Positions 1,933 through 20,000 are shown, counted from the first letter of the stretch. The stretch is 20,000 nucleotides of DNA from an uncultured virus (IMG/VR IMGVR_UViG_3300032132_000753) (IMGVR_UViG_3300032132_000753); one strand, 5' to 3'. The notes: generated from the letters alone by a model not told the origin. Made by a program: numbers and translations.

Positions 1933-4900
1933 ATGGGTATTATCGTACGTGGAAAAGACTCTGCATCTGGCCAGAATAGAGAAGCTCTATTACCAGATGA
2001 ACTGCTTACCAAAAGCGGTGAATCCCTATCGCCGTTATTCAACGACGGAACTTTCCTAGCACGTAGTCAAAGCACTACCGTAACAGGTTCACACACGTTC
2101 GCCCAAGGTGAAAACGTCGTAACTGATGGTACAAACCTCTTCGCGCAAGGGTTTGGAATTGGCATCGGAGCTGATGGCTCAGAAGTTTTCGCTCAGGGTT
2201 ATAATGTCAACATTGCCGCTGATTCTGACAACGTTTTCGCTCAAGGTTTTGGAATTAGCGTACAAACTAATGATCCTACTGTAGGTCCAGACGACGTTTT
2301 TGCCCAAGGTTCAGCAATAAATACAGCTGGGCAAGCCGTGTTTGCCCAAGGTTATAACAACGACGTTTACGGCAATTACAACCTAGCTCAAGGTAAAAAT
2401 CTAACAATTGGTGGACCTACTAGCACCGAATGGTTTAATTTAGTACAAGGTCTTGACATCGACGTTCAAGGCAGCCGTGTCTTCGCTCAAGGGCGTGACA
2501 TCACCGTTGATAAAAGTCGCGGATTCGCTCAAGGCTCCGACATTACTTTATCCTCGTACCACGGTTTTGCTAGTGGTACTGATATCCGAATCTTAGCTAA
2601 TAGTTCTGCTGGAATTGGTAACGACATTTACGTTACTGATTACTTCTCATTCGCCCAAGGGCGTGACATCATCATTAATGATAGTCGAACGCCAACTAAC
2701 GGCGGAGGCGGAACAGCCCGTGGAGCGTTCGCCCAAGGATACAAAGTCCACGTCTATGACCCATATGTCTTAGCTCAAGGCTATGATATCACAGTCGGTG
2801 AGCCAAACAACGATACTTCATACTACGTGTTTGCACAAGGCCGTAATATTCAAGCTAGCGGCGATAGCATCTTTATGCAAGGAAGAGACATCTATAGTGT
2901 TGGTTCTTCAGATAATGTGTTCGCGCAAGGTGAAGATATCAGCTTACTTGGGTGCGACTACACTTTAGCGCAAGGAGAAGAAATCACTTGCGCTGATGGT
3001 GTCGACTATACTTTGGCTCAAGGATATGGATTAACTGTCGGATATGACTCAGAAAGAGTCCTAATTCAAGGATATAATAATACTGTTGGTGCTGGAAACG
3101 ATGATGTTTTCGTTCAAGGTTATGATGTTGTAACAGCCGATTATGTCAAAGCATCTTTCGCGCAAGGTGACAATGTCGATATGCGCATGGGTAATTCTTT
3201 TGCCCAAGGCAGCGACATCTATATGGGAACTACCTACCCGTCTGCCGGTTTTCAAAACTTCGCACAAGGTTCCAACATTACTGTACACAATGATTGTGTG
3301 CAAGTAATGGCTCAAGGCGGATTAATCACAGTTGCAACCGATGCTTACGAGATTTTCGCGCAGGGATTTAGTATCAATATTGGAACTCTACCAGTAGGCG
3401 CAGGAACATATCTGCACAATGTTTTTGCGCAAGGCCGGTTTCTATCTGTTGGCAATGACTCTAACGAAATTTTCGTTCAAGGTAATAACATTACCATGGG
3501 CGAGGATAACGATCAATTATTCGCGCAAGGCGCGAACATTACAGTTACAGGGTCCAACCAAAACACAAATATGCTACAGGGTTACGACATTACAGTTAGT
3601 GATGATGTCATTTTGGCTCAAGGATGGACTATCAACGTTGCAGGCGATTATGTCCTAGCCCAGGGACGCGACATTGATGTTAATAATGATTATACTTTAG
3701 CGCAAGGCTATCACATCACTACAAACGGTGATTACTGCTTCGCCCAGGGCTACGAAATCACCACCGCCGCATACGACAACAACTTCGCTCAGGGATACCA
3801 AATCGACTTATCATTAGGTGAAGATGAAGTCTTCGCCCAAGGATGTGATATCACCGTTTATGGTGGCGCTGAAAAAGTCTTCGCCCAAGGCGACAATATC
3901 AACATCGGTGGAGATTACTGCTTTGGACAAGGCGACGATATTTATCTGCCAGAATTCTCAGATTATTGCCTGGCTCAAGGATACGATATCCGCATCACTA
4001 GCCCATCAAAAGCACTAGACCCTAACGGAATCTCATTAGGACAAGGGTTTAACATTGATATTACCGCGTCACATTGCCTTGCGCAAGGTCGAAACATCCT
4101 TATTGAGGCAGACAACTGCTTCGCACAAGGGTTTGGAAACGACATCGATGCAGCAAACCAAGTCAATAGTTTCGCACAAGGTAACAGCAACTATATTGGC
4201 GGTGAAGGATACAACAACTTCGTACAAGGCGACAGCAATACAATCTATTATGGATACCACTGCTTCGCCCAAGGATATAGCAATTATGTCGAAGGAAACA
4301 CAGGAAGCTATGTCTACCAAGCTTTCATGCAAGGATACGATAACACAATTTCTTATTCCAACAACAGCATGGCACAAGGGTATACAAACGACATTAGTTC
4401 TAATGACGGTCAAAACTTTGCGCAAGGGTACGAAAACGTTATTACAGGAGAAAGCTGTTTTGTCCAGGGAAATGGCAACTTTATAGACGGAGACAACAAC
4501 TTCGCACAAGGATCTGACATCTCTATAGGCGCTCCATTCTCAACTGATACCGATGCCTGCTTCGCACAAGGATACATGATTACCTTCTCTGATGGGGTTA
4601 AATTCTCATTTGTACAAGGTGCTTATGCCAATGTTACCGCTTCCTACACCATGGCCCAAGGCGCTTATGTTGAAGCTATACGTGAAGGGCAACGTTCGTT
4701 CGGATCTAATAGAACTACTGGAATTGGCCATGGACAATCTAGTTTCATCGTCAGACATGCCAAAACTACTGACGCAACAGCAACAAATATCATAACGCTA
4801 GCTCTAGCTGAAGACAAGAGTTACATCATCTGGGGTTACGTAATCGCAAGAAACACAACAACAGATGATGAAACAGCATCATTCCGCCTTGGACAGTCTA

Positions 4901-5121
4901 CCGCATATAGGGATACTGCCGGGGATGCTGTTTTAATTGGAGCTGGGCCAACGTCACCAATCACTTTCACATCACAAGATTCAGGCGGTGGTAGTGTAGA
5001 TTGGATAGTTGAAATCTTGCCGGAAGCTTCATCGGCCAACGTACATATTGAAATCACCGGGGATGCTACTGATACAGTTGAATGGGTAGCACACATTAAC
5101 TTCTGCGAAGTCGCAGGATAA
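1933..5121 (+). CDS. Long fibre/adhesin-like virion protein with ~55 'FAQG' beta-solenoid repeats (1062 aa)
   Basis: Repeats of about 14-16 aa, [F/L]AQGxxIxV, resemble YadA-head/Hep_Hag-type beta-roll repeats. The non-repetitive beta-rich C-terminal domain (TTDATAT...VEWVAHINF) resembles phage fibre tips. Confidence 0.75.
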   Translation: MGIIVRGKDSASGQNREALLPDELLTKSGESLSPLFNDGTFLARSQSTTVTGSHTFAQGENVVTDGTNLFAQGFGIGIGADGSEVFAQGYNVNIAADSDNVFAQGFGISVQTNDPTVGPDDVFAQGSAINTAGQAVFAQGYNNDVYGNYNLAQGKNLTIGGPTSTEWFNLVQGLDIDVQGSRVFAQGRDITVDKSRGFAQGSDITLSSYHGFASGTDIRILANSSAGIGNDIYVTDYFSFAQGRDIIINDSRTPTNGGGGTARGAFAQGYKVHVYDPYVLAQGYDITVGEPNNDTSYYVFAQGRNIQASGDSIFMQGRDIYSVGSSDNVFAQGEDISLLGCDYTLAQGEEITCADGVDYTLAQGYGLTVGYDSERVLIQGYNNTVGAGNDDVFVQGYDVVTADYVKASFAQGDNVDMRMGNSFAQGSDIYMGTTYPSAGFQNFAQGSNITVHNDCVQVMAQGGLITVATDAYEIFAQGFSINIGTLPVGAGTYLHNVFAQGRFLSVGNDSNEIFVQGNNITMGEDNDQLFAQGANITVTGSNQNTNMLQGYDITVSDDVILAQGWTINVAGDYVLAQGRDIDVNNDYTLAQGYHITTNGDYCFAQGYEITTAAYDNNFAQGYQIDLSLGEDEVFAQGCDITVYGGAEKVFAQGDNINIGGDYCFGQGDDIYLPEFSDYCLAQGYDIRITSPSKALDPNGISLGQGFNIDITASHCLAQGRNILIEADNCFAQGFGNDIDAANQVNSFAQGNSNYIGGEGYNNFVQGDSNTIYYGYHCFAQGYSNYVEGNTGSYVYQAFMQGYDNTISYSNNSMAQGYTNDISSNDGQNFAQGYENVITGESCFVQGNGNFIDGDNNFAQGSDISIGAPFSTDTDACFAQGYMITFSDGVKFSFVQGAYANVTASYTMAQGAYVEAIREGQRSFGSNRTTGIGHGQSSFIVRHAKTTDATATNIITLALAEDKSYIIWGYVIARNTTTDDETASFRLGQSTAYRDTAGDAVLIGAGPTSPITFTSQDSGGGSVDWIVEILPEASSANVHIEITGDATDTVEWVAHINFCEVAG
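2092..4662 (+). repeat. Coding tandem repeat region: ~55 degenerate units anchored on ttcgcNcaagg (FAQG)
   Basis: Counted by hand in the translation. Most units are 14 or 16 aa, with occasional loop insertions. Confidence 0.9.
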
Positions 5122-8797: not shown

Positions 8798-8970
8798 AAT
8801 ATTCCTGGATGTCGTCTATTGATCGCGGCAAACGTCCACCGTTTTACAATAGCTCTCTGGCCCTCTAAACGATCCAACAAATTGGAGATAGCTTCATCTG
8901 GGTCGACGAGGTATTCTGCCTCGAAGAGATGCACCATATCACGGGATTTTCTCCACAACTTGTTGTTCAT
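8794..8970 (-). CDS. Small hypothetical protein (58 aa, MNNKLWRKSRD...), probably leaderless
   Basis: In-frame ATG at 8970 within ORF 8794-9030, 4 nt after the motif CAAAGATA. Its stop overlaps the next ATG (ATGA). Confidence 0.65.
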   Translation of the reverse strand: MNNKLWRKSRDMVHLFEAEYLVDPDEAISNLLDRLEGQRAIVKRWTFAAINRRHPGIL

Positions 8971-8974
8971 GAGG

Positions 8975-8982
8975 TATCTTTG
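8975..8982 (-). promoter_or_regulatory. Putative phage promoter motif CAAAGATA
   Basis: Matches CAAANNTA, 4 nt before the ATG at 8970. Confidence 0.65.
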
Positions 8983-9027
8983 GCTACGCTTTACGACGTG
9001 GTCCGAGAAGGGTATTTGACCGTAAAA

Positions 9028-9035
9028 CAAAAGTA
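9028..9035 (+). promoter_or_regulatory. Putative phage promoter motif CAAAAGTA
   Basis: Matches CAAANNTA. Followed by a GGAG SD and the in-frame ATG at 9055. Confidence 0.65.
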
Positions 9036-9054
9036 TTTTCGGAGTAAACCACCT

Positions 9055-10677
9055 ATGAGACGAAGACCATTAATAGATCAAGTGTGGAAGCACGGCTCTG
9101 TCCACTATAAAATTATTAAATTAATGGCAGACGGATCACTAGAAGTTTTAACACGAAACGGAACAACCGGGAGATGGTCAACTAAAACACAAATCCTAAC
9201 ACCAACAGATTTAAACTATCTAGAATTCGTTAAAGCACCAATAGATCAACAAACTCTGCCAGAAGAACCACCAGAAGTCGACACCGTTGTAAAACGAGCG
9301 ATGTTCCGCAGAGACCTCAAAAAATCTAAACGATATGTCATAACATATGCCCAAAATTCTACACCAGTCCACACAACCTTCTGGGCGGCCTTGTTAGTTT
9401 ATTGCAAAGAAAACAACGCCGAGTTAATTGTGATTCCTGGGCGATATCGTAACCCCACAAGCGTGTGGACCGGCAACAACAAAGCATCAGAAACCTGGGA
9501 CGAGGAGGTCAGACCATACCTACTATCCAAAAGGGTTCAATTGCGCGATGACCTGATGGTTTATAGCGATATCTCAATCCAACCAACAGCAGTTCGCCCA
9601 TTGACCGGCATGGAAGTGTTCACCGGAAAAAGTTCAGCCATCTTTGGACATCCAAAACTACAGTTATTAACTGTAGCAACTAACTCCAGACGCTCCAAAT
9701 TAATGACGACCACCGGGTCATGTACAATCCTTAACTATACGTGTTCAAAAGCTGGAAAGAAAGCAGCCGCTCACCATGTCTTCGGAGCTACTGTCGTAGA
9801 ACTAGGCAAAAGTGGATTCCATGTTCGACAAATCAACGCCAACAAAAAAACCGGCAAATTCACCGATTTGAATTGGTGTTATGATGAAAACGGGAAAACA
9901 CCAGCCCCTCCAGCAGAAGCTTTAATCTTAGGAGATATCCACGCCGAAAACGTCAGTGAAAAAGCAATTGCTTCATCCTTTAAGATGATCGAGGCTCTTC
10001 AATGCAAAAGAGCGATCTATCACGACTTGTTGGATTTCAATGTAAGAAACCATCACTCAATTAACGATTTCTGCAATCGTTATACTAGAGTGACCTCTGA
10101 TAAAGCAGAAGATGTCATTGAAGACGAGTTAGAACGAACACTTGATCTTTTAGAAGCTACACCATCCTGCGCCCAACCCATCGTGATCCAATCTAACCAT
10201 GATGAAGCGTTTGACAGATGGCTAGATACATCTAATCCTAAACTTGATCCAATTAACTCACTGTTATACCACCGAATGTGGGTAGCCAAATTAGAAGAAT
10301 TTAATAGCACTCAAGAATGGATCACAGCATTCGATCTATATTATCAAATGATGGGTCTGACAAGGGCTGAATTCATCAAAAGAGATGATAATTATCCAAT
10401 TCTTGGCATCGAATGCGGTTACCATGGCGATAAAGGAATAAACGGATCCAGAGGTTCTGCCATCTCTTACGCTAAATTGGGTATTAAAACAATTGTCGGT
10501 CACAGACACACACCATCCATCCTCGATGGTTGCTATACAGTAGGTGTAATTGGAGAACTAGATCAAGGCTATAATGACTTACCATCTAGTTGGGCTCACG
10601 CCAATTGCGTGATCTATGCTAACGGGAAAAGAAGCCTCATTTTTATTCAGCCTGACACTGGTGAATGGAGAATCTAA
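9055..10677 (+). CDS. Calcineurin-like metallophosphoesterase/nuclease resembling phage T5 A1-type proteins (540 aa)
   Basis: Metal-binding motifs LGDIH, HDLLD, SNHDE, YHGD, GHRH. Blocks YAQNSTPVH, GHPKLQL, KAGKKAAAHHVFGA, NGSRGS, SSWAH and YANGKR match my recollection of A1-like phage proteins. Start moved to 9055, which has an SD and the promoter motif and avoids the antisense overlap. Confidence 0.75.
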   Translation: MRRRPLIDQVWKHGSVHYKIIKLMADGSLEVLTRNGTTGRWSTKTQILTPTDLNYLEFVKAPIDQQTLPEEPPEVDTVVKRAMFRRDLKKSKRYVITYAQNSTPVHTTFWAALLVYCKENNAELIVIPGRYRNPTSVWTGNNKASETWDEEVRPYLLSKRVQLRDDLMVYSDISIQPTAVRPLTGMEVFTGKSSAIFGHPKLQLLTVATNSRRSKLMTTTGSCTILNYTCSKAGKKAAAHHVFGATVVELGKSGFHVRQINANKKTGKFTDLNWCYDENGKTPAPPAEALILGDIHAENVSEKAIASSFKMIEALQCKRAIYHDLLDFNVRNHHSINDFCNRYTRVTSDKAEDVIEDELERTLDLLEATPSCAQPIVIQSNHDEAFDRWLDTSNPKLDPINSLLYHRMWVAKLEEFNSTQEWITAFDLYYQMMGLTRAEFIKRDDNYPILGIECGYHGDKGINGSRGSAISYAKLGIKTIVGHRHTPSILDGCYTVGVIGELDQGYNDLPSSWAHANCVIYANGKRSLIFIQPDTGEWRI

Positions 10678-11219
10678 TGACCTGCATTGTCGGGGTTAAG
10701 GATAAAAACAATATTTATTTAGGTGCCGACAGCGCCATAAGCGATAATAACCTAGTTCAAACTATGGTAGATCCCAAAGTTTGGAAAAAAGGCCGATTCG
10801 TTTTCGGATATGCAGGAACTTTAAGAGTCGGGCAGCTCATCAAGTATAAGATGAAAATCCCACCAATTAATAATCGAAAACCAACTCTATACATGGTCAC
10901 TTCCTTTGTTGACGCTATGAGAAAATGTCTTAAAGCTGCTGGAGCAGCTAGAGAAGAACACAAAGAAGAGGAACAAGAAAACCAATTCTTGGTAGCATTT
11001 TCTGGACACCTATTCGAAATTGACAACGGATATGGCGTTTGTGAAATCAATAATCCATATGCTGCAATTGGGTCTGGGACAGAATACGCTCTTGGATCAC
11101 TTTACGCAACGGAAAAATTGCCATCTGCAGATAGGGTATTGAAGGCATTAGAAGCCTCTGCCCATTTTTGTGATTCTGTAGGTGGTCCATATCACGTCGT
11201 CAAGTGTAAAGGTAAATGA
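10677..11219 (+). CDS. HslV/proteasome-beta-like Ntn-hydrolase threonine protease (180 aa)
   Basis: A start at ATG 10677 (TAATG coupling) gives M-TCIVG. After Met removal, Thr1, Asp17 (GAD) and Lys33 fall exactly at proteasome-beta numbering. GYAG and AIGSG motifs are present. Confidence 0.88.
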   Translation: MTCIVGVKDKNNIYLGADSAISDNNLVQTMVDPKVWKKGRFVFGYAGTLRVGQLIKYKMKIPPINNRKPTLYMVTSFVDAMRKCLKAAGAAREEHKEEEQENQFLVAFSGHLFEIDNGYGVCEINNPYAAIGSGTEYALGSLYATEKLPSADRVLKALEASAHFCDSVGGPYHVVKCKGK

Positions 11220-11555: not shown

Positions 11556-12608
11556 ATGCCTGGCAAACTAAATCTACCTGAGAAATACAAAGAATATCGT
11601 GGTGAGATTGAGTTCATTATCAAGGATCGCTTGGGCAACGTCGTAGACACTTTTGTTGAACCAAACATTGTCAAGATCTTCGGTAAAGAAATTCTATCAC
11701 ACCGCATGTTCCACTCCAAAGTTTGGGACCGAACAGCAAATAGTGGTACCGGAGCCTGGATCCAAAACCCGGTTGATCCCAACGAAGACTTTTCAGTAAA
11801 GTACATCTTATTTGGCGCATCATTCGATGAAAACGGAGTCCCGTTAGACACTAACGACACTCGATACTACCAAACCGATCCGATTACTCAAATCGCCGTA
11901 CCAAACAAACTAACGCCTGGAGCAGACTGGGGTGGAGGGTTAATTAACGCCATTCCACTAGCAGAACCAGATCGCCCATTAAAACGAATAGAAAATATCG
12001 CTTTCGAGCCTACTTTCCAACCGGCAGGCACACCACAACTACAAGCCGACGTTCGAGCCATGAACAACATCGTTCTCCTCGAAACTACATTATTACCAGA
12101 AGAATATAACGGATTTGGTTTATCTTCAGGCGGCGGCGATTCTTTTACTATTACAGAAGTTGCTTTAGCGGGCGGCAGGGAACTAGATGTTATCGGTTCC
12201 TGTGAATGTGATCCGAAGAAGATCTTCCTTGAGGGAGATTCTGAAGGAATAGCACTAGCGGCAACAGCTAGCGGCAGCGATGTTATTACCCTAGACACTA
12301 CCCTAACTGATGTCAATACCATCAGAGAAGGCGATCAAATCAAGATCATAAGTGCAGGCGGTACATCAGATTCATCTGATACCCTAGGGCAAGTCACACC
12401 ATTCTATCTAGTATTATCCAAAAGCGTGGGTGGTCGAGATATCCAACTTGATCGAGTCCCTGTCGATGCCTCTCAGAATCCTATTGTTGGACCTATTGGC
12501 GTTTTCCGTGATACTCTGAGAATTTTCTCACACAGAATTTTGTCTACGCCTGTCCGAAAAACAAGCGATTTTGAAATTCTTGTACGTTGGCGAATCGTCT
12601 TTAACTAG
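11556..12608 (+). CDS. Putative baseplate/tail-fibre attachment structural protein (350 aa)
   Basis: The pattern RGEIEFIIKD...NIVK...ITEVAL...IFSHR...VRKTSDFEILVRWRIVF resembles myovirus baseplate/fibre-proximal domains, with a beta-rich insertion. Confidence 0.6.
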   Translation: MPGKLNLPEKYKEYRGEIEFIIKDRLGNVVDTFVEPNIVKIFGKEILSHRMFHSKVWDRTANSGTGAWIQNPVDPNEDFSVKYILFGASFDENGVPLDTNDTRYYQTDPITQIAVPNKLTPGADWGGGLINAIPLAEPDRPLKRIENIAFEPTFQPAGTPQLQADVRAMNNIVLLETTLLPEEYNGFGLSSGGGDSFTITEVALAGGRELDVIGSCECDPKKIFLEGDSEGIALAATASGSDVITLDTTLTDVNTIREGDQIKIISAGGTSDSSDTLGQVTPFYLVLSKSVGGRDIQLDRVPVDASQNPIVGPIGVFRDTLRIFSHRILSTPVRKTSDFEILVRWRIVFN

Positions 12609-12676: not shown

Positions 12677-14410
12677 ATGCCAACCATCGATCCAACATTA
12701 ATCCCATGCATTGATCCTGGGTCACTGTTTAGCAGGTTAACCGCAGATCCAACACTCAACGTAAGATGGTTCGTAGCGGTAGACCCAGTCACACACAGTG
12801 TACTCAACCGGCCAATTGCAGACATAGCCGTACGACAGTTGATCCTAGCTAAAACGCTAGACGCAGTATCGCTACGCCTCGGTCACCAATCAATGTTCCC
12901 GTTCCTAGTAACTGCTCAAGTAAGCAACGGAACTCAGAACGTAGACATTCCACCATCATGGATTTGGGACATGCAAGTCTCCCTTCCACAGAAATGGGAA
13001 AAAGTCCGTCTAGCTAGAGTCAAGAGACTTAGCGGAATGAATGGGGCGAGCGGAGGAGAATACACCGGATTAATCCGATTAGTTTTCACTGCCCAATCAC
13101 AAGGATCAACAACTGAAATCTCAGTATTCCAAGCAGATTTCAGAATTGACAGTGACCTAACATATCAAATCGCACGAGTCTCTATCCCTCTAGTAGGCTC
13201 AGAGCCAGCAGTCCTACCGGCTGGTGAAACGGAAACCGTCGGCGGGTTCGTCACATTCAGAACTCTAAACGCAGAAGACGCTGGCGTACAAGCATTCTAT
13301 AATGTAGTTGCTCCACCAGTCGATACTACTACTGACTCAGCCGGATTATTCATCACTCCAAATGTTATCGAAATCAACGACTCCCTCCCTGGCGGATCTG
13401 GAATCAGCAACGACTTCGATTTCTTAGCCGTAGCCCATGGCACAGGCTTGTTAACATTAAGCGCCTATAATCCCATTCCGTCTGTTGATTCAACCGTTTC
13501 AACATGGATTAATACATTCAACTATCCATTCGAAGAAGTAGCAACATTACAAGATTCTAGCGGACATGGAATTATCATTCCAACTGGGTTATTTAAAGAA
13601 TTTAACCTAGTAGCTCCAGCAGGCGACGAACCTACCGGTGATGTCTCTGGTAATTTCCGACCTGTTTGGATTAGTAGAATCGTTAGAGATGATGCCGCTT
13701 CCAATTCAGTCACTCTATACTTTAGTACTTTCAATATCGAAGCACCATCAATTGTTCCCGTTGAATTTGCTGTTCTTGTCCTTACTAGAACAGCAACTGC
13801 CGGTACAAGATTGGCGATTCTTCCTGGCGACAATTTATTCCCAACTCAAGTTAGCACTGACTGGAATCAAGGATTCGGTAAAGGTCATGTTGTCTTATCT
13901 GACCTATGGCAAACCAACCCAACTGCTATCACAGATTTCTTCGACCGCTTCCTATCAATCATCGATATTCCACCACAAGCCATCTTCACTAAAGAATCGA
14001 CTAGGCTTTCATCTTATGGATTAAGTCGAGTTCCTGATCTTACTCCAACGGTTGGACAAGCTGCGGCTCTACGTGGAACGCGTCAAGAAACAAATGAGCA
14101 CCCTAATTCTACTAACAGATATATCGTTGAATTAGATCAAGGCTTAGGTGCTCAAGTCGACTTCGCCAATGAAGCTTCCCTACCTTTAGACAGGCGTGAA
14201 AACCCAGACATCGAACGATTTGGCTGGAAGGGTGCCCTCGCTCACCGAGTAATTCGGATGTGCGTTAATACCGATGGTGGAAACCACGAGTATGACACAG
14301 ATATCCTGCCGCGCCTACGCATCCTCCTTGGACGAGACCCTGCTTTTGGTGATTTCTGGTGGGACGGCGTTACGTTGAAATTCTTCAACGGCGATGCTTG
14401 GATTACTTAA
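12677..14410 (+). CDS. Hypothetical protein, likely virion structural (577 aa)
   Basis: Long ORF, beta-rich and acidic, with an SD, adjacent to the baseplate-like gene. No recognised catalytic motif. Confidence 0.75.
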   Translation: MPTIDPTLIPCIDPGSLFSRLTADPTLNVRWFVAVDPVTHSVLNRPIADIAVRQLILAKTLDAVSLRLGHQSMFPFLVTAQVSNGTQNVDIPPSWIWDMQVSLPQKWEKVRLARVKRLSGMNGASGGEYTGLIRLVFTAQSQGSTTEISVFQADFRIDSDLTYQIARVSIPLVGSEPAVLPAGETETVGGFVTFRTLNAEDAGVQAFYNVVAPPVDTTTDSAGLFITPNVIEINDSLPGGSGISNDFDFLAVAHGTGLLTLSAYNPIPSVDSTVSTWINTFNYPFEEVATLQDSSGHGIIIPTGLFKEFNLVAPAGDEPTGDVSGNFRPVWISRIVRDDAASNSVTLYFSTFNIEAPSIVPVEFAVLVLTRTATAGTRLAILPGDNLFPTQVSTDWNQGFGKGHVVLSDLWQTNPTAITDFFDRFLSIIDIPPQAIFTKESTRLSSYGLSRVPDLTPTVGQAAALRGTRQETNEHPNSTNRYIVELDQGLGAQVDFANEASLPLDRRENPDIERFGWKGALAHRVIRMCVNTDGGNHEYDTDILPRLRILLGRDPAFGDFWWDGVTLKFFNGDAWIT

Positions 14411-14948
14411 TCTTAGGCTTGATCTTACCGATCCCTCTAGATGAAACCCCATACTTTGGGCGATAAAAAATTGCGCTATGGCGCATATGTATCGAAGAAT
14501 GCTGTGGCCAGATAGGCGCACAACCACTTGGCTTTACAGTGGTAATCTTTAAATTTTTAATCCCACTAAGGATTGCAGCAGTATCGATCCTATTAGACCA
14601 AACGATTGGGATTTCGTCTAAAACATCTTCAATAAGATTTTTAAATTCTTTCCTATTATGCTTTACTTTAGTTAGTATCGCTGGCCTAACGCCGGTTCGC
14701 ATTAACCATAGTTTACCATTACTATGATAGACAAATGTATACTCTCGTTGCCCTTGTCGCGAGCGCGCTCTGAATCTCAAGTACGGGCTATACTCCGGGT
14801 CGCATACAGTCTTTAAATCGACGTACTCTCCTGATGCATCAGAAAAGAACACGGAGCTACAAAGCGCCAGTCCTTTCCCGAACTTCGGTCTGCGACTTTG
14901 GCGTTCTTTCTTAATCTGTCCTTTAGTCTTCTTTTTCTTAGGAAGCAC
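14403..14948 (-). CDS. Highly basic hypothetical protein (181 aa)
   Basis: GTG start overlaps the peroxidase stop (TAGTG). K/R-rich. The 3' end overlaps the convergent gene by 8 nt. Confidence 0.65.
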   Translation of the reverse strand: MLPKKKKTKGQIKKERQSRRPKFGKGLALCSSVFFSDASGEYVDLKTVCDPEYSPYLRFRARSRQGQREYTFVYHSNGKLWLMRTGVRPAILTKVKHNRKEFKNLIEDVLDEIPIVWSNRIDTAAILSGIKNLKITTVKPSGCAPIWPQHSSIHMRHSAIFYRPKYGVSSRGIGKIKPKIK

Positions 14949-16450
14949 TAGCTAACCAACATGACATAATCTTGAATCTCGTCCGATATTACAGTGTTTC
15001 TACGAATAACGTCGGAAAGTTTCGTTTGTTCAAGCTCTAATAATTTAGGTCCATCAAATACGTTCTGATACCAGAATCGATCCCCATCCCGAGTGTTTTC
15101 AAATTGAATTTTACAAATAGTATAGAACAATTCTCCCAACATCGAATCTAAATATCGATCTTCTGCTAAACCGCCTACCCAAATATCAATGTCGTCAGCA
15201 GATTGATAAGCATCTTTAAGTCTGGCAACTAAAGTAAGATTTGTAGAAATCTCCTCAAAAGTTTTCCTTTTTAACCCTAAATCTTCTCTAGCATCATTAT
15301 AACTTGGAAGCCCATGATCTCTCCCGCGTTGGATATTTAACGAAGCCAAATCCATGCCACCTTGTCCAGGATTTCCAAACAAGAAATTACGAAGTTCCGA
15401 TACAGTCATCGCATCCAAAGCCTCGCAAGTTTGGCGTGCCGCGCCGCGTAACAGAGGTTCAATGCCACCGCCAACAGTTAAATGTTGTGGAGAAAAGAAT
15501 GCGTCTCTCAGTAATAACGGGCCTTCATCGATGGAATTCAACGATGAATCTAAACGTTGTAATTGAGAGGACACCAAAGAGTGCCCTAATCTATAAGCCG
15601 CTGTAGAGAACACATTCGTAACGGATGCGTCTACGTTTGGATTATATCCAGAATAATCAGAAATTCTGGAGCCAAGCAACAACGGTAAAAATTCTTTAAA
15701 AGTGATGACCTGATTTAATGCTACCACTTCCTGGCGAGCACGTTGGTAAATCTCTTCTCCGCCAATTTCAGCACAGGAAACAAATAACTCGTGGGCGATT
15801 CGATTATGCTCTCGAACCCACAAGCTATGCATGGCAGTTAGTAGAACATTTTCGTTAGCTCTAACATCTCCCGCCAAATACAAATCGCTACTATTGCCGC
15901 CAGCGTTAGGCAGCCCAGGGTGGTTAAAAGGTAACAAACCATTGGGGCCGGTTTTCAATTTTCCTGTTCCATCTAAAGTTCGAAGTGCAAAAGCTCTTTC
16001 TTGGTCAGCTCCATATACGTTGGTAGCATCGATAAAACTGCTTTGTATATTGATTTGTTGTCGAGGCCCAGTCCCAATTTCGTAAATTGACCTATTTAAT
16101 GGGATGATGGCTTTACCAGTATGGGCTGGATCGAAATATGGATCGCCTTTTGGTATTTGGATATAGAATGGTTCTGATGGATCGGCTTCGGGGGTTAAAT
16201 CAATGTCGTGATCTACAAACTGTCCCCATAGCCAAAAGAAGTCCGAAGCACCTTTTCTGTTGGTTGTTGGGTTCGATTGATTTATTACTTTGTTACTAAT
16301 GTCTCTTGCTGATGGTCGAGACGGACCAGCAGGTGCTGACATCCCGTCAGCATATCCAATTCGAAGTAGTCGTCGGAGTGGAGTATTAGCTTGTCCGTAA
16401 TGGGGATTTGATAGGTTGTTCCCTGAACCGTCTACTGATCGATATTCCAT
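14948..16450 (-). CDS. Animal-type heme peroxidase (peroxidase-cyclooxygenase superfamily), 500 aa
   Basis: YRSVDGSGNN, WGQFVDHD (distal Gln/Asp/His), SSFIDATNVYG, AGDVRANEN (distal Arg, Glu), REHNR, AAYRLGHS (proximal His), LNIQRGRDHGLP, DGDRFWY. Confidence 0.95.
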   Translation of the reverse strand: MEYRSVDGSGNNLSNPHYGQANTPLRRLLRIGYADGMSAPAGPSRPSARDISNKVINQSNPTTNRKGASDFFWLWGQFVDHDIDLTPEADPSEPFYIQIPKGDPYFDPAHTGKAIIPLNRSIYEIGTGPRQQINIQSSFIDATNVYGADQERAFALRTLDGTGKLKTGPNGLLPFNHPGLPNAGGNSSDLYLAGDVRANENVLLTAMHSLWVREHNRIAHELFVSCAEIGGEEIYQRARQEVVALNQVITFKEFLPLLLGSRISDYSGYNPNVDASVTNVFSTAAYRLGHSLVSSQLQRLDSSLNSIDEGPLLLRDAFFSPQHLTVGGGIEPLLRGAARQTCEALDAMTVSELRNFLFGNPGQGGMDLASLNIQRGRDHGLPSYNDAREDLGLKRKTFEEISTNLTLVARLKDAYQSADDIDIWVGGLAEDRYLDSMLGELFYTICKIQFENTRDGDRFWYQNVFDGPKLLELEQTKLSDVIRRNTVISDEIQDYVMLVS

Positions 16451-16454
16451 GGTG

Positions 16455-16462
16455 TATTTTTG
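16455..16462 (-). promoter_or_regulatory. Putative phage promoter motif CAAAAATA
   Basis: Minus strand reads CAAAAATA-CACC-ATG: 4 nt before the peroxidase start, with no SD. Confidence 0.65.
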
Positions 16463-16471
16463 GTATACAGC

Positions 16472-16499
16472 GACGGCCCACCATTATTGGTGGGCCGTC
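16472..16499 (-). terminator. Perfect 12-bp GC-rich hairpin just downstream of the tmRNA (terminator or processing signal)
   Basis: Plus strand reads GACGGCCCACCA-ttat-TGGTGGGCCGTC, 4 nt beyond the tmRNA 3' end. No U-tract on the tmRNA strand. Confidence 0.7.
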
Positions 16500-16503
16500 T
16501 TTA

Positions 16504-16911
16504 TGGAGATGCGGGGAGTCGAACCCCGGTGTTGGAATAAAATCCAGAGTGGATCTACGTGTGTAGTCAACGATCAATTTTTGTCCTTTACGAGGGCCGT
16601 CAACGTCCCTGATAAGGCTTGAGCTAAAAATTGTCGGCCTTCAGCTTTAGCTTACTGTTGGCTTAACCTCTCTTATTGGCTCTACCAGTCTTTCCCTCAG
16701 AGGTGGGAGTGTCCGACTGGCAACTCAGGGTTTTAAGCTGAGACTAGCTCACCGGCATCGATCCACGAGTGGATGTCAGCATCGGTGAAGCTGAAGCTGT
16801 CAACGTTGTTGTTGGCAATTAAAGTTTTTGATCACATTTTTACGAGGCCAAGTAATCATCCTCGACACGCACCATTTCCTTTGTCTATCCAGTCGATGCC
16901 AAGTCATCCCC
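16504..16911 (-). ncRNA. ssrA: tmRNA (transfer-messenger RNA), one-piece, 408 nt, CCA not encoded
   Basis: 5' GGGGATG pairs with 3' CATCTCC-A and includes the G3:U alanine determinant. 5' loop GGCATCGAC. T-arm CGGGG-TTCGACT-CCCCG. Pseudoknot pk1 (CGAGG/CCTCG and TGATTAC/GTGATCA). Resume context TTTAATT-GCC followed by a tag ORF. Confidence 0.95.
16733..16816 (-). other. tmRNA tag reading frame: ANNNVDSFSFTDADIHSWIDAGELVSA-stop (27 codons)
   Basis: Translated by hand from the GCC resume codon after pk1 to TAA at 16735-16733. Confidence 0.85.
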
Positions 16912-16920
16912 CAGATTCCT

Positions 16921-16928
16921 TACTTTTG
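16921..16928 (-). promoter_or_regulatory. Putative phage promoter motif CAAAAGTA upstream of the tmRNA
   Basis: Lies in the 18-nt gap between the upstream stop and the tmRNA, 9 nt before the mature 5' end. Confidence 0.65.
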
Positions 16929-16929
16929 G

Positions 16930-19083
16930 TTAAATACCCCATTTAGCTTTAAGATAATTAGAAATTCTCTGTCTATCGGATGTTGATATAGGTTCACCAT
17001 AAATGATAATTTCATAAATCTTGCCACTAAAAGTTCCAGCAGAGTTTCCGATCTCAATTGTTAAAAAATTGACAAGATCACCAAACCAATCCCCATTATT
17101 ACCACCAGCTACTACTGTAGAGCCTATGTTCGCTCCATCCTGCTCTAAAAACCAAAAACCACCGTTTGTAGACACATTATAAATAAACGGAACACCAATT
17201 GCCACAGATTGATTATTAACAACAATTGCATCCTGAGTGCCTCCAACTTCAACTCTGATTTCAGGACCTGTAGAGTTACTTAGAGTATCGGCTCTAATCT
17301 GAAAATTGTAACTTCCAGGAGCAGCACATACACCACGGAAAACATCCATGTCGTTAAGATCAACCGAACCTGGCTCCATGACAATGAAAATTTCGCCAAC
17401 ATTATCAGACGCAAGGCTTACTGGAGGAGCTACAGGACCGAGAACATCACCGGCAGAGTAATTAACACCATTTAACCCATTTAGCGCAGAAATCTCATAT
17501 AACGGTTGGTTTCCAGGAGTTACTTGCGAGAACACCAATCCATTTAAACTTTTGTCAGTCCAAGAAGATACATCACTGCCATTTAACCCAACGGTAGCAG
17601 CGTCAGCAGCATCTAACCAAATTCGCAAATCATTAATATCATCTGGGCGCAACGCAAATTCTTGCTTTTCATCAAATTGTTCAACACCAATGGATGGATG
17701 ATCCCCAACTAGAATACCATCACCACCAGAATCCCAAACAACATCAAAAACAGTTGGCGGAACAAGACCAGAAACAACAAGACCGTCAGTCCCAATAACA
17801 CCATCTGTAGTACTTAACAAAGTGGCTGGAGTCCTTGGACGACTGTGTTTTTTATCAAAACTCATCCGAACATTAGTCGGTGACATGACACTATTTTTTA
17901 AATCAATCCTAACCCTATAAGACCCACTAAGGTTTTCAACTTCTAAAATATCAATGTTAGATTCGTTATCGAAAAGAACTCTATCGCCACCGCCGGTTAA
18001 ATCATTAACCATGCCAAGTTGACCAGCGCCACCAACGGTTCCAAGAACTTCGATCTCATGATAAGCTCCCTTCCATTTCATAAATGTGGCTACATCGCCA
18101 GAATTGGCTCCAGCACCGTAAAGTAAAATTTCAGGTTTTCCGCCAGGATTTGCTTCTTGATCAACATAGCAACTCATGCGATAATCGACACCTAGGCCAG
18201 TAAATCCAGATGGAATAACATCATTAGTTATATTGACAGGTGAAGCTGTTGCATCAAATCTATATGCTTGTAAAGAGCCCCCCGAGTTTACTCCAACCCA
18301 AAACATCGTTGGAGTACCGAAATATTCATCTGCAAACACTGCCCATGTGGCTCTATGAGAACCAGAATTAATTCCAGCTGTAATAGTACCAACTGCTACA
18401 GCTGTATTAGCATCCAATCTAAATAGAAACGCAGCTGTAGATGAAAGAGAAACAAAATACAGTTTATCATCGAAAATGATTGGATGAACAGGTTGGACAT
18501 GAGAACCAACTGTTGCAACTTCGTTAATGGCTTGAGACCTAGGATCATAAGATATGATTCTTGCAGTCGGGGTAACGGCACTTGATGATCCGGCAAAATA
18601 GAAAATATCCTTAAAAACAATTTCTCCAAAAATTCCTGTAGAGTCAGAGGAAATACTACCTGAAGTCATCTGATCGCCTGTCTCTGTCCATGTTGTGCCG
18701 TCGAATTTTACTCCTCTAAAATAATTAACCGGCGCTCCCATGCCACCAGTAGGTCTTCCATATGTGCATACAATGTGCGGAACACCATTGACTAGCATTT
18801 GATATAGCCCAGATGAAAATTCAGACGCTAAAGCGAAAGAATGAGAAATCTGCCAGTCTAAAGTTGGGTTAGCTAAGTCATAAACATAAACAATATTATT
18901 TAATAATGCATATACTTTACCGTCAAACTGGATAACCCTATTGCGACCCTTATTTTCAGAATTATCATTATATGATTCTAAAGATCCAAAAGTACTACCA
19001 AGTAAGGTTAAACTTGTTCCATTCAGGCGATAAACACCAGGAACGCCATCAACAAATCGTAATGTGAGAAGTGGTTTAGCCAT
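16930..19083 (-). CDS. Putative virion/receptor-binding protein: beta-propeller-like N-terminal region and LamG/concanavalin-like C-terminal domain (717 aa)
   Basis: The C-terminal pattern LRIWLDAAD...VSSWTDKSLNG...FSGKIYEIIIY...DRQRISNYLKAKWGI is typical of LamG-like domains in phage structural proteins. Repeated 'FDGKVY/FKDIFY/FDDKLY' blade-like motifs occur in the N-terminal region. Confidence 0.7.
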   Translation of the reverse strand: MAKPLLTLRFVDGVPGVYRLNGTSLTLLGSTFGSLESYNDNSENKGRNRVIQFDGKVYALLNNIVYVYDLANPTLDWQISHSFALASEFSSGLYQMLVNGVPHIVCTYGRPTGGMGAPVNYFRGVKFDGTTWTETGDQMTSGSISSDSTGIFGEIVFKDIFYFAGSSSAVTPTARIISYDPRSQAINEVATVGSHVQPVHPIIFDDKLYFVSLSSTAAFLFRLDANTAVAVGTITAGINSGSHRATWAVFADEYFGTPTMFWVGVNSGGSLQAYRFDATASPVNITNDVIPSGFTGLGVDYRMSCYVDQEANPGGKPEILLYGAGANSGDVATFMKWKGAYHEIEVLGTVGGAGQLGMVNDLTGGGDRVLFDNESNIDILEVENLSGSYRVRIDLKNSVMSPTNVRMSFDKKHSRPRTPATLLSTTDGVIGTDGLVVSGLVPPTVFDVVWDSGGDGILVGDHPSIGVEQFDEKQEFALRPDDINDLRIWLDAADAATVGLNGSDVSSWTDKSLNGLVFSQVTPGNQPLYEISALNGLNGVNYSAGDVLGPVAPPVSLASDNVGEIFIVMEPGSVDLNDMDVFRGVCAAPGSYNFQIRADTLSNSTGPEIRVEVGGTQDAIVVNNQSVAIGVPFIYNVSTNGGFWFLEQDGANIGSTVVAGGNNGDWFGDLVNFLTIEIGNSAGTFSGKIYEIIIYGEPISTSDRQRISNYLKAKWGI

Positions 19084-19097
19084 GAGAACCTTTTTGG

Positions 19098-19126
19098 TAT
19101 ATTTGTGAAATAAGATATCAAAAATA
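19098..19126. promoter_or_regulatory. Divergent putative promoters: CAAATATA (minus, 19098-19105) and CAAAAATA (plus, 19119-19126)
   Basis: Motif pair in the 65-nt divergent gap. Confidence 0.65.
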
Positions 19127-19148
19127 CAACAGACTATCGAAGAACATT

Positions 19149-20000
19149 ATGGCAAATACATTCAGTCCTACAATCAGTTTCGCCGTAGAAAGAACATTAG
19201 ATGATGAATCTAATTCGTTCAGTTCTATTGCTACATTCGAAGTACAACAAATTGTTTCGGATAACTCTTTCAGCCAAGTTTTCTACCTAACAAGCCCAGA
19301 CGTGAAGTCTAACGTCGAATTCGACGTAGAAGCTACATCACAAATCGAATTTGGACGCACATTAGATTCAGACATCGAATTGGACGTCGAAACTGATGCG
19401 CAGATCACATTCGGACGCACGTCAAATGCCGATATCGAATTCGACGTAGAAGCGACCGTAGTTAAGGTAATTCAAAAAACTGTTGATACCATTATCGAAT
19501 TCGATTCTAATTCCAATGGCTTTACGGCCCTAGAACCATTTCTAGATGCAGATCTAGAATTGGATGTAGAATCGACTGGAATCTTAGATCATAGCGAAAC
19601 CTTACAAAATGATCTTGAATTCGACGTAGAAACAGACGCGCAAATAACAAAGGAAGCCACTTCTGAAGTAGAAATTGAATTCGACGTAGAAACAACTGGG
19701 TTCGTATCTGCTGGTAACATCTATATGAAATCAGTAGAAGTAGGAATTGAATTCAATAATGATGTGTTCTATGCCAGAAAAATTGGTCCATTGTTCGAAA
19801 CTGGACAAAGAGGAAATATCCGCATCGTCAACTTATCAACTAAAAACATCTCCCTAGGACGTAAACAAAAGTCAACATTAGTTCTTGCTCCTAGTGAATC
19901 ATCTTTACAAAAGCAAACCGATTTCGATTTGGCTCAACTTTCAAATCTGTCTGATGCTGGATTAATTCAAGTATTTGGTATAAACGTTAGAAATCTATGA
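19149..20000 (+). CDS. Acidic 20-aa-repeat protein (283 aa), likely structural
   Basis: ORF ends with TGA at 19998-20000. Contains seven [I/L/V]E[F/L]DVE-type repeats. Confidence 0.8.
   Translation: MANTFSPTISFAVERTLDDESNSFSSIATFEVQQIVSDNSFSQVFYLTSPDVKSNVEFDVEATSQIEFGRTLDSDIELDVETDAQITFGRTSNADIEFDVEATVVKVIQKTVDTIIEFDSNSNGFTALEPFLDADLELDVESTGILDHSETLQNDLEFDVETDAQITKEATSEVEIEFDVETTGFVSAGNIYMKSVEVGIEFNNDVFYARKIGPLFETGQRGNIRIVNLSTKNISLGRKQKSTLVLAPSESSLQKQTDFDLAQLSNLSDAGLIQVFGINVRNL
19308..19727 (+). repeat. Seven degenerate 60-bp (20-aa) tandem repeats, core gaattcgacgtagaa (EFDVE)
   Basis: The core recurs at exact 60-nt spacing: 19317, 19377, 19437, 19497, 19557, 19617, 19677. Confidence 0.85.

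Follow-up and report, generated by a model that had tools for sequence, protein, structure and literature searches.

The 20,000-nucleotide (nt) stretch of DNA analysed here, from an uncultured virus (IMG/VR IMGVR_UViG_3300032132_000753) and called the window below, contains a genuine, intact gene for a one-piece transfer-messenger RNA (tmRNA, ssrA) at positions 16504..16911 on the minus strand. It is the sole gene that ARAGORN reports in the 20-kb window, with the tag ANNNVDSFSFTDADIHSWIDAGELVSA*, and the same program finds no transfer RNA (tRNA) genes there. The Rfam model RF00023 matches positions 16501-16911 over its whole length (1-374 of 374) with 120.2 bits and an expect value (E) of 6e-47; the gathering score is 47 bits. 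The original prediction, made by reading the bases, had described a phage-encoded tmRNA with a tRNA-like domain at this place. Its coordinates and tag sequence are exactly those found here, it gave no strand, and two of the checks it proposed, ARAGORN and the Rfam tmRNA covariance model, are both positive and agree with each other.

The RNA has the parts expected of a tmRNA. The acceptor stem has 7 bp (GGGGAUG/CAUCUCC) and includes the G3:U pair seen earlier, and the T-arm, GGGGUUCGACUCCCC, has a canonical T-loop. The gene ends with the discriminator A followed by UAA, showing that CCA is not encoded, as had been noted, and therefore that it needs to be added after transcription. The earlier statement that the window lacks smpB also holds, as none of the 18 window open reading frames (ORFs) scanned matches SmpB. 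The pseudoknot pk1 (16829..16864, minus strand) is located just upstream of the resume codon and consists of CGAGG.../...CCUCG together with UGAUUAC paired with GUGAUCA.

The tag reading frame (16733..16816, minus strand) runs from the resume codon GCC, which aligns with the Rfam consensus GCa, through 27 codons to the stop TAA, and encodes ANNNVDSFSFTDADIHSWIDAGELVSA. The UAA stop lies in the loop of helix 5 (CUCAG...CUGAG). In the Rfam alignment there is a 48-nt insertion within the tag frame, and the tag is long because of this insertion. The description of the tag as unusually long was overstated: the published natural range is 8-35 residues, with ClpXP, ClpAP, and Lon as readers (PMC8012679), and tags have 33 residues in Omnitrophota and 21 in Caulobacter phage C2. 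The tag is acidic and aromatic in character. It ends in VSA in the window and in VTA or VTV in the relatives described below, and these endings have a hydrophobic C-terminal outline similar to the usual AA-type, with the final AA absent. Engineered variants of the E. coli tag, for example LVA and AAV, remain substrates for degradation, although their rates differ. The passages of PMC9382460 that deal with LVA, AAV, and SVA name them only as variants of the last three residues. A sequence search of the PDB with the tag gave a single insignificant match (E 0.28), and a six-frame search of the retrieved loci found the tag core nowhere outside the tmRNAs themselves.

The tag frame also contains a nested hairpin at approximately 16748..16790 (minus strand), with outer arms CUUCACCG/CGGUGAG, inner arms AUCCA/UGGAU, and the loop CUCG. 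It is part of the 48-nt insertion described above. These nested inverted repeats, which had been pointed out before, dominate the predicted fold of the tag region and are retained in relatives. The hairpin is not thermodynamically unusual: the tag region folds with -23.9 kcal/mol (z = -1.44), and 12 of 200 shuffled sequences fold equally well.

The tag belongs to a small, rare family of tmRNAs that is met only in metagenome DNA, the longer contigs of which are phage-like. The family was searched for with twelve tag codons (D-I-H-x-W-I-D-A-G-E-x-V) back-translated with third positions free, a pattern in which 22 bases are fixed. This wobble pattern matches six loci in JGI metagenome contigs (L017 to L022) and none in IMG/VR viral contigs, where an exact 24-nt tag pattern also has no match. 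The original prediction had warned that a nearly identical tag in a bacterial lineage with naturally long tags would take away the novelty; no match to the wobble pattern was found among 185,579 bacterial and archaeal species, each represented by one genome. A relaxed pattern, WIDAGExV, was also tried on the viral contigs and rejected; its 34 loci contain no tmRNA and are chance matches in protein genes. Rfam finds a tmRNA in five of the six metagenome loci, with 89-148 bits. The tags, besides ANNNVDSFSFTDADIHSWIDAGELVSA of the window, are ANENVDSFSFTDADIHAWIDAGELVTA in L017, ANTNSTDALTDAEIHSWIDAGELVTV in L019, VNTNSTDALTDAEIHSWIDAGELVTV in L018 and L021 (the L019 tag with V as its first residue), ANTNEADSLTDAEIHSWIDAGELVTV in L022, and ANTINADVLTDAEIHSWIDAGELVTV in L020. 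The family shares an 18-residue tag end, [FL]TDA[DE]IH[SA]WIDAGELV[ST][AV].

The two longer contigs, L019 and L021, are phage-like. They encode GroES, two Holliday-junction resolvases, a Cas4-like exonuclease, and endonuclease VII, as well as a uracil-DNA glycosylase, a patatin, a metallophosphoesterase, tRNA genes, and many ORFs without assigned function. No HslV-like gene is found in the 15-18 kb around their tmRNAs. The G+C content of the family loci ranges from 39 to 60%, which argues for different hosts. The ORFs upstream of the L017 tmRNA are unrelated to those of the window. In L021 (9755-10724) an insert of 557 bp with an endonuclease VII/HNH ORF interrupts the tmRNA gene within pk1, after nt 68. 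This insert is absent from the 92%-identical L018 (8695-9105), Rfam finds no intron in it at gathering thresholds, and it looks like a mobile homing-endonuclease gene.

Pieces of this tmRNA are also present in contigs of public sequencing runs from four other studies. A piece from seawater (run X2) has 0 differences in 151 nt, two from sediment have 3 differences in 164 nt (X3) and 3 in 151 nt (X4), and one from groundwater (X6) has 13 differences and one gap in 217 nt. The remainder of the window has matches of about 80-88% in these four runs, or none. The pieces are short contigs of low depth (151-168 nt and depth 2-3 in sediment), and no conclusion about habitat is drawn from them.

Covariation in the family shows that the RNA is under tmRNA-type structural constraint. 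In the six-sequence alignment compensatory changes occur in 30 of 100 predicted pairs, including pairs of the acceptor stem, the T-arm, and helix 2. All six members have the G3:U pair, and acceptor pairs 5-7 have compensatory changes. With pk1 written into the family alignment in pseudoknot notation, 90% of its cells are paired in the relatives, compared to 23-48% in controls with slid partners. Pairing reaches 97% in helix 1, and changes on both sides are found in four of the seven pairs of helix 2. The pseudoknot claimed for the window is therefore backed by its relatives as well as by its own bases.

From the distribution of substitutions, translation of the tag and selection on the resulting peptide are probable. 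The tag is the most conserved third of the RNA. Its identity to L017 is 88%, against 73% upstream and 60% downstream, and its identity to the other four intact members is 69-74%, against 55-66% and 41-47% for the flanks. Within the 18-codon core, six codons are invariant, seven change only synonymously, and five have conservative replacements (F/L, D/E, S/A, S/T, and A/V). Among the positions that the search pattern left free, three of eight first positions, one of seven second positions, and 11 of 17 third positions vary. The three T-D-A codons immediately before the pattern always encode the same residues, and two of them vary synonymously. TAA, TGA, and TAG are all used as the stop at one site, and a 3-nt insertion or deletion in the variable N-terminal part of the tag preserves the frame.

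It is well supported that the tmRNA gene lies inside a phage genome and not in a chromosome at a prophage junction. PHROG families match four of the 18 window ORFs. The DNA is marked as phage by a T5 A1-like 'DNA transfer' protein (8929..10677, plus strand; phrog_1745, E 2e-149), whose closest relatives by tblastn are in Xoo-sp13 (309 kb), CM1 and RAS14 (about 320 kb), and XacN1 (385 kb), with 39-41% identity, followed by Caulobacter Bertelyviruses of 303-327 kb. A UvrD-type helicase ORF also has a PHROG match (E 3e-120); its best phage matches are unannotated records and are uninformative about the host. For a 350-residue ORF (11556-12608), ESM-Atlas clusters are 92-97% viral with a score of 0.97. 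The peroxidase of the window, described below, has a database entry that places it on a 311,419-bp contig, a size akin to that of the related jumbo phages. Phage-type ORFs or ORFs of no family flank the tmRNA for 16.5 kb on one side and 3 kb on the other, no integrase family matches any of the 18 ORFs, and neither a second copy of the tmRNA 3' end nor an attachment-site-like repeat is present in the window. These flanks, the virion-like ORF 18 nt upstream, the 311-kb contig, and the absence of the tag from the bacterial genomes support the claim that the tmRNA is phage-encoded. They also speak against the host ssrA at a prophage attachment site, which the original prediction had held to be the consequence if the flanks proved chromosomal.

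The phage is very novel, since most of its other ORFs lack relatives among 50,697 deposited phage records. In these records megablast of positions 14000-20000, blastn of the window tmRNA or that of L019, and tblastn with the tag peptide gave, taken together, no match besides one chance hit (E = 10), and tblastn of three large ORFs of no family had no match.

The genes on either side of the tmRNA are on the same strand. The tmRNA starts 18 nt past the stop codon of a 717-residue ORF (16930..19083, minus strand) that matches phrog_10356, 'virion structural protein' (E 3e-19), and, by tblastn, a virion structural protein of Cyanophage KBS-S-2A. The C-terminal part of this ORF is LamG/jelly-roll-like. 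It has Atlas structure matches to viral clusters (TM 0.83-0.86), and the nearest feature clusters of the LamG domain are from Planctomycetota, at a borderline score of 0.91. In viral contigs the 717-residue ORF and the peroxidase have distant C-terminal matches only, or none. Neither a sigma-70-like promoter immediately before the tmRNA nor an intrinsic terminator is recognised in a consensus scan. Beginning 4 nt past the 3' end of the tmRNA is a GC-rich 11-bp hairpin, read from the sequence (GACGGCCCACC / GGUGGGCCGUC, 16472..16499); it has no U-run on the tmRNA strand and is not called an intrinsic terminator, and it may mark a site of 3' processing or termination. The earlier claim of a motif shared by the upstream regions of this gene and of the virion genes is not supported. 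The only 8-mer near the gene that is shared upstream of another gene is TATTTAAC, 18 nt upstream, and its frequency is close to chance: it occurs three times in the window where 1.1 are expected, and 15 of 200 shuffles reach three.

Directly downstream of the tmRNA is an intact haem peroxidase of 500 residues (14948..16450, minus strand), of the peroxidase-cyclooxygenase or 'animal haem peroxidase' type (PF03098, E 5e-152), which is context and not part of the tmRNA. Its nearest relatives, with 64-67% identity, form a separate group of short proteins (500-509 residues), among them six metagenome homologues of 502-509 residues. The bacterial homologues, which include proteins from metagenome-assembled genomes (MAGs) of Planctomycetota, have about 57% identity, 570-650 residues, and about 90 additional N-terminal residues. 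Because these residues are missing, the phage form may be cytoplasmic. No phage-encoded enzyme of the animal haem peroxidase family is among the literature matches listed.

The other features of the window are more distant from the tmRNA. An HslV-like N-terminal nucleophile (Ntn) peptidase (10665..11219, plus strand; phrog_1040, E 8.5e-23) is a possible phage protease. Its match to the NCBIfam HslV family is far under the cut-off, a Thr comes right after the internal Met5, which could be the true start, and no partner ATPase is found in the window. A 1062-residue ORF (1933-5121, plus strand) has dozens of degenerate repeats with a TTCGCnCAAGG (F-A-Q-G) core, spaced at multiples of 3 nt (often 45-60 nt). 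Its sole family match is a weak beta-roll, it has no phage match by tblastn, and it is probably a beta-helical fibre or spike. Positions 19317-19696 (plus strand), in an ORF at 19149-20000 that passes the end of the window, have repeats GAATTCGACGTAGAA... whose spacing is a multiple of 60 nt; the product is an acidic repeat protein with no family match.

A lead on the origin of the RNA scaffold is given by a signature of 19 bases from pk1 and helix 2 (GCGTGTCGAGG, 9-14 nt, GGCCTCGT), which the window RNA shares with tmRNAs of the Planctomycetes-Verrucomicrobia-Chlamydiae (PVC) group. In the species genomes this signature occurs at 120 loci at the least. Of the 120 listed, 40 hold a tmRNA according to ARAGORN, and the others are chance matches in GC-rich genomes. 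Among the matches listed, 39 of the 40 are from Planctomycetota, Verrucomicrobiota, Kiritimatiellota, Lentisphaerota, or Omnitrophota. Their tags have 8-12 residues in 36 cases, 17 in two, and 33 in two (both Omnitrophota), and 37 of the 40 end in AA, unlike the 27-codon tag of the window with its VSA end. These loci were chosen through the shared motif, the window RNA is highly divergent from them, and no bacterial tmRNA aligns with it beyond the signature region. Two weaker hints in the same direction are the Planctomycetota clusters nearest to the LamG domain and the Planctomycetota homologues of the peroxidase. The scaffold would most likely have come from the PVC group, to which the host may also belong, and as a lead this origin or host has roughly even odds.

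Two further observations concern bacterial tmRNAs. Two Omnitrophota MAGs have chromosomal tmRNAs (L063 133-570 and L069 145-570) with 33-residue tags that are rich in Ala, Pro, and Met and end in LAV or PVI, showing that very long non-AA tags occur naturally in a bacterial phylum. One Planctomycetota MAG chromosome (OY780932.1) has two loci (L037 and L043) about 30 kb apart across the record ends. Each has the pk1 signature and tmRNA-like 5' and 3' motifs, ARAGORN calls neither, and they may be a duplicated ssrA.

Overall it appears, with a probability of roughly 0.7, that the window encodes an intact tmRNA of an uncultured large marine phage, that its tag belongs to a family conserved as peptide, and that it acts in host-assisted ribosome rescue. 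The RNA would probably be transcribed during infection with, or just after, the upstream virion-protein-like gene; from the 18-nt spacing and the common strand, the simplest inference is that transcription reads through from that gene and that RNase P then processes the transcript. The RNA would be trimmed by RNase P and 3' nucleases of the host, the host CCA-adding enzyme would add CCA, and host alanyl-tRNA synthetase would charge it with alanine via G3:U. SmpB and EF-Tu would then deliver it to ribosomes stalled on broken mRNAs without stop codons, and degradation of host transcripts by the phage, if it occurs, should make such mRNAs abundant. The ribosome would switch to the tag frame, add Ala and 27 residues, terminate, and be recycled. 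The most speculative step is that the tag marks proteins for destruction; like LAA, its end has a hydrophobic residue followed by a small one and then by a small or hydrophobic one. The acidic and aromatic core, which is conserved, might, speculatively, be bound by a partner other than the reader of the host's short AA-ending tag, and the phage might thereby set the fate of the rescued proteins. The original idea that the tag may redirect rescued peptides to a different protease or adaptor gains indirect support from the peptide conservation of the tag end in different phages and from its contrast with the AA-ending tags of the likely source clade. That the RNA counters defences that cleave tRNA or mRNA, as had been proposed, is speculation.

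A further suggestion is that the phage has a tagging system of its own, in which the 18-residue module would be read by a partner of the phage's choosing: perhaps its own HslV-like peptidase, or an adaptor, or some host factor distinct from ClpXP. This is possible but tentative, and is clearly less likely than its absence. The HslV-like peptidase, 6 kb away, is a candidate reader by proximity only. If such private tagging exists, proteins left unfinished after the wreckage of host mRNAs would be handled on the phage's terms and not by host quality control, by rapid recycling to amino acids or by protection against host proteases.

Several observations weigh against the reading of a phage tmRNA with a peptide-conserved tag. 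The distinct relatives number only five, ARAGORN detects a tmRNA in just one of the six loci, and L017, L020, and L022 are too short to be called phage or cell. Among the five intact relatives, the GC-rich L018 (8695-9105), L019 (7247-7657), L020 (1147-1562), and L022 (410-819) depart from the canonical T-loop, with GGCAGUA in place of the near-universal UUCGAnU; these four are missed by ARAGORN, and they have a covarying T-stem and Rfam scores of 89-116 bits. Identity in the twelve pattern codons arises partly by construction, through the 22 fixed bases. The conserved core overlaps the conserved RNA hairpin, and some of the conservation may be at the RNA level. Across the family each hairpin pair either stays constant or shows only a one-sided change to G-U, with no compensatory changes, so that RNA-level constraint contributes some share. 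In addition, the GTDB representatives may omit the true host, which could be the owner of the tag.

This last point leads to an alternative source for the tag, namely capture from the ssrA of an unsampled bacterial lineage, perhaps in or near the PVC group, in which case the RNA would top up host-type trans-translation. Phage tmRNAs usually resemble those of the host lineage (PMC9004378), and the pk1 signature GCGUGUCGAGG...GGCCUCGU is otherwise found in PVC tmRNAs (39 of 40 confirmed by ARAGORN among the 120 loci listed). Long natural tags exist, such as those of 33 residues in Omnitrophota. The sediment runs hold near-identical tmRNA pieces and little else of the window, but with contigs of 151-168 nt at depth 2-3 the absent remainder means little. 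Capture is nevertheless unlikely, as the tag pattern is absent from the 185,579 species genomes, bacterial tmRNAs align nowhere beyond the signature region, and the tag core is common to phage-like DNA of 39-60% GC, arguing for different hosts. The absence of the tag from the bacterial genomes searched also tells against a host chromosomal ssrA at the edge of an integrated prophage. The gene ssrA is a known attachment site (PMC9004378) and the adjoining peroxidase has bacterial homologues at about 57% identity. However, the nearest relatives of this peroxidase are the separate short group (500-509 residues, 64-67% identity), the genes on both sides, over 16.5 kb and 3 kb, are of phage type or of no family, and there is neither an integrase match in the 18 ORFs nor a repeat of the tmRNA 3' end. 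This explanation is close to refuted.

A different alternative concerns the function of the molecule and not its origin. It could work mainly as RNA, either as a decoy for SmpB or another tmRNA partner or as a protein-binding hairpin with an incidental reading frame. Mycobacteriophage DS6A has a tmRNA-like gene for only a tRNA-like domain (TLD), for which a role as inhibitor has been considered (PMC4131195). The conserved core coincides with the conserved nested hairpin, and four relatives have the aberrant T-loop. The window RNA on the other hand has the complete tmRNA architecture with a canonical T-loop, and the stability of its hairpin is ordinary (z = -1.44). Variation is mostly in third codon positions (11 of 17, against one of seven second positions), the frame survives an insertion or deletion, and TAA, TGA, and TAG interchange at one site. 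A function as RNA only is thus quite improbable, more so than capture of the tag and less so than the prophage explanation.

Tags of tmRNAs are usually treated as simple destruction labels tuned to the cell's own proteases. The preferred reading, a phage tmRNA with a conserved tag that acts in ribosome rescue, adds to this picture. The tag end is conserved as a peptide across unrelated phage-like genomes, absent from 185,579 species genomes, and unlike the AA-tags of the PVC group, which suggests phage control of rescue and of the fate of its products. The tag could also yield an orthogonal degradation tag, as has already been exploited from Mesoplasma.

The window tmRNA has the same architecture as the one-piece SsrA of the E. 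coli type (tag AANDENYALAA; RF00023), with G3:U, T-arm, pk1, a resume codon after a conserved upstream stretch, and the stop in helix 5. By this analogy its mechanism is presumably that of canonical SsrA. It differs from E. coli SsrA in being phage-borne, in having 27 codons via the 48-nt insertion, and in ending with VSA instead of LAA, as well as in lacking an encoded CCA and an smpB among the 18 window ORFs. The long SsrA tag of Mesoplasma and Mycoplasma, which is read by Lon (PMC9382460), is also long and departs from the ClpXP type, and it provides a precedent for the co-evolution of tag and reader. It has no sequence likeness to the tag of the window, it comes from a bacterial lineage without ClpXP, and its reader is known.

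Several phages are known to carry tmRNAs. They have been described in mycobacteriophages (Bxz1/Catera and others) and Bacillus phage G (Hudson et al., PMC4131195), and both tmRNAs and SmpB are reported in huge phages (Al-Shayeb et al., PMC7162821). In a survey of 18,146 phage genomes, 402 had tmRNAs, 133 of them unique and 53 two-piece (Buchholz et al., PMC9004378). Full-text searches brought up no paper analysing families of phage tmRNA tags, which is not proof of absence. Among the relatives by A1-like protein, XacN1 (L009 1514-1934) has a permuted two-piece tmRNA according to ARAGORN, with the tag ANANTFDYALAA and 33 bits for RF00023, and Caulobacter phage C2 (L015 1475-1907) has another, with the 21-residue tag VNASNDNDVVVSTMTSVKLAA ending in KLAA and 24 bits. 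In four related jumbo phages Rfam finds no tmRNA above the cut-off, only tRNA-like matches. The tmRNAs of XacN1 and C2 are below this cut-off, and screens by Rfam alone therefore under-count phage tmRNAs. Like the window, XacN1 and C2 represent large phages with a ribosome-rescue RNA that are near by their A1-like protein; their tmRNAs are permuted and two-piece with a canonical LAA end, while that of the window is one-piece and ends in VSA. Thus the carriage of tmRNA by large phages is already known and 27 codons are within the natural range; the novelty lies in a rare tmRNA family, linked to phages and found only in metagenomes, whose conserved tag core lacks the AA ending.

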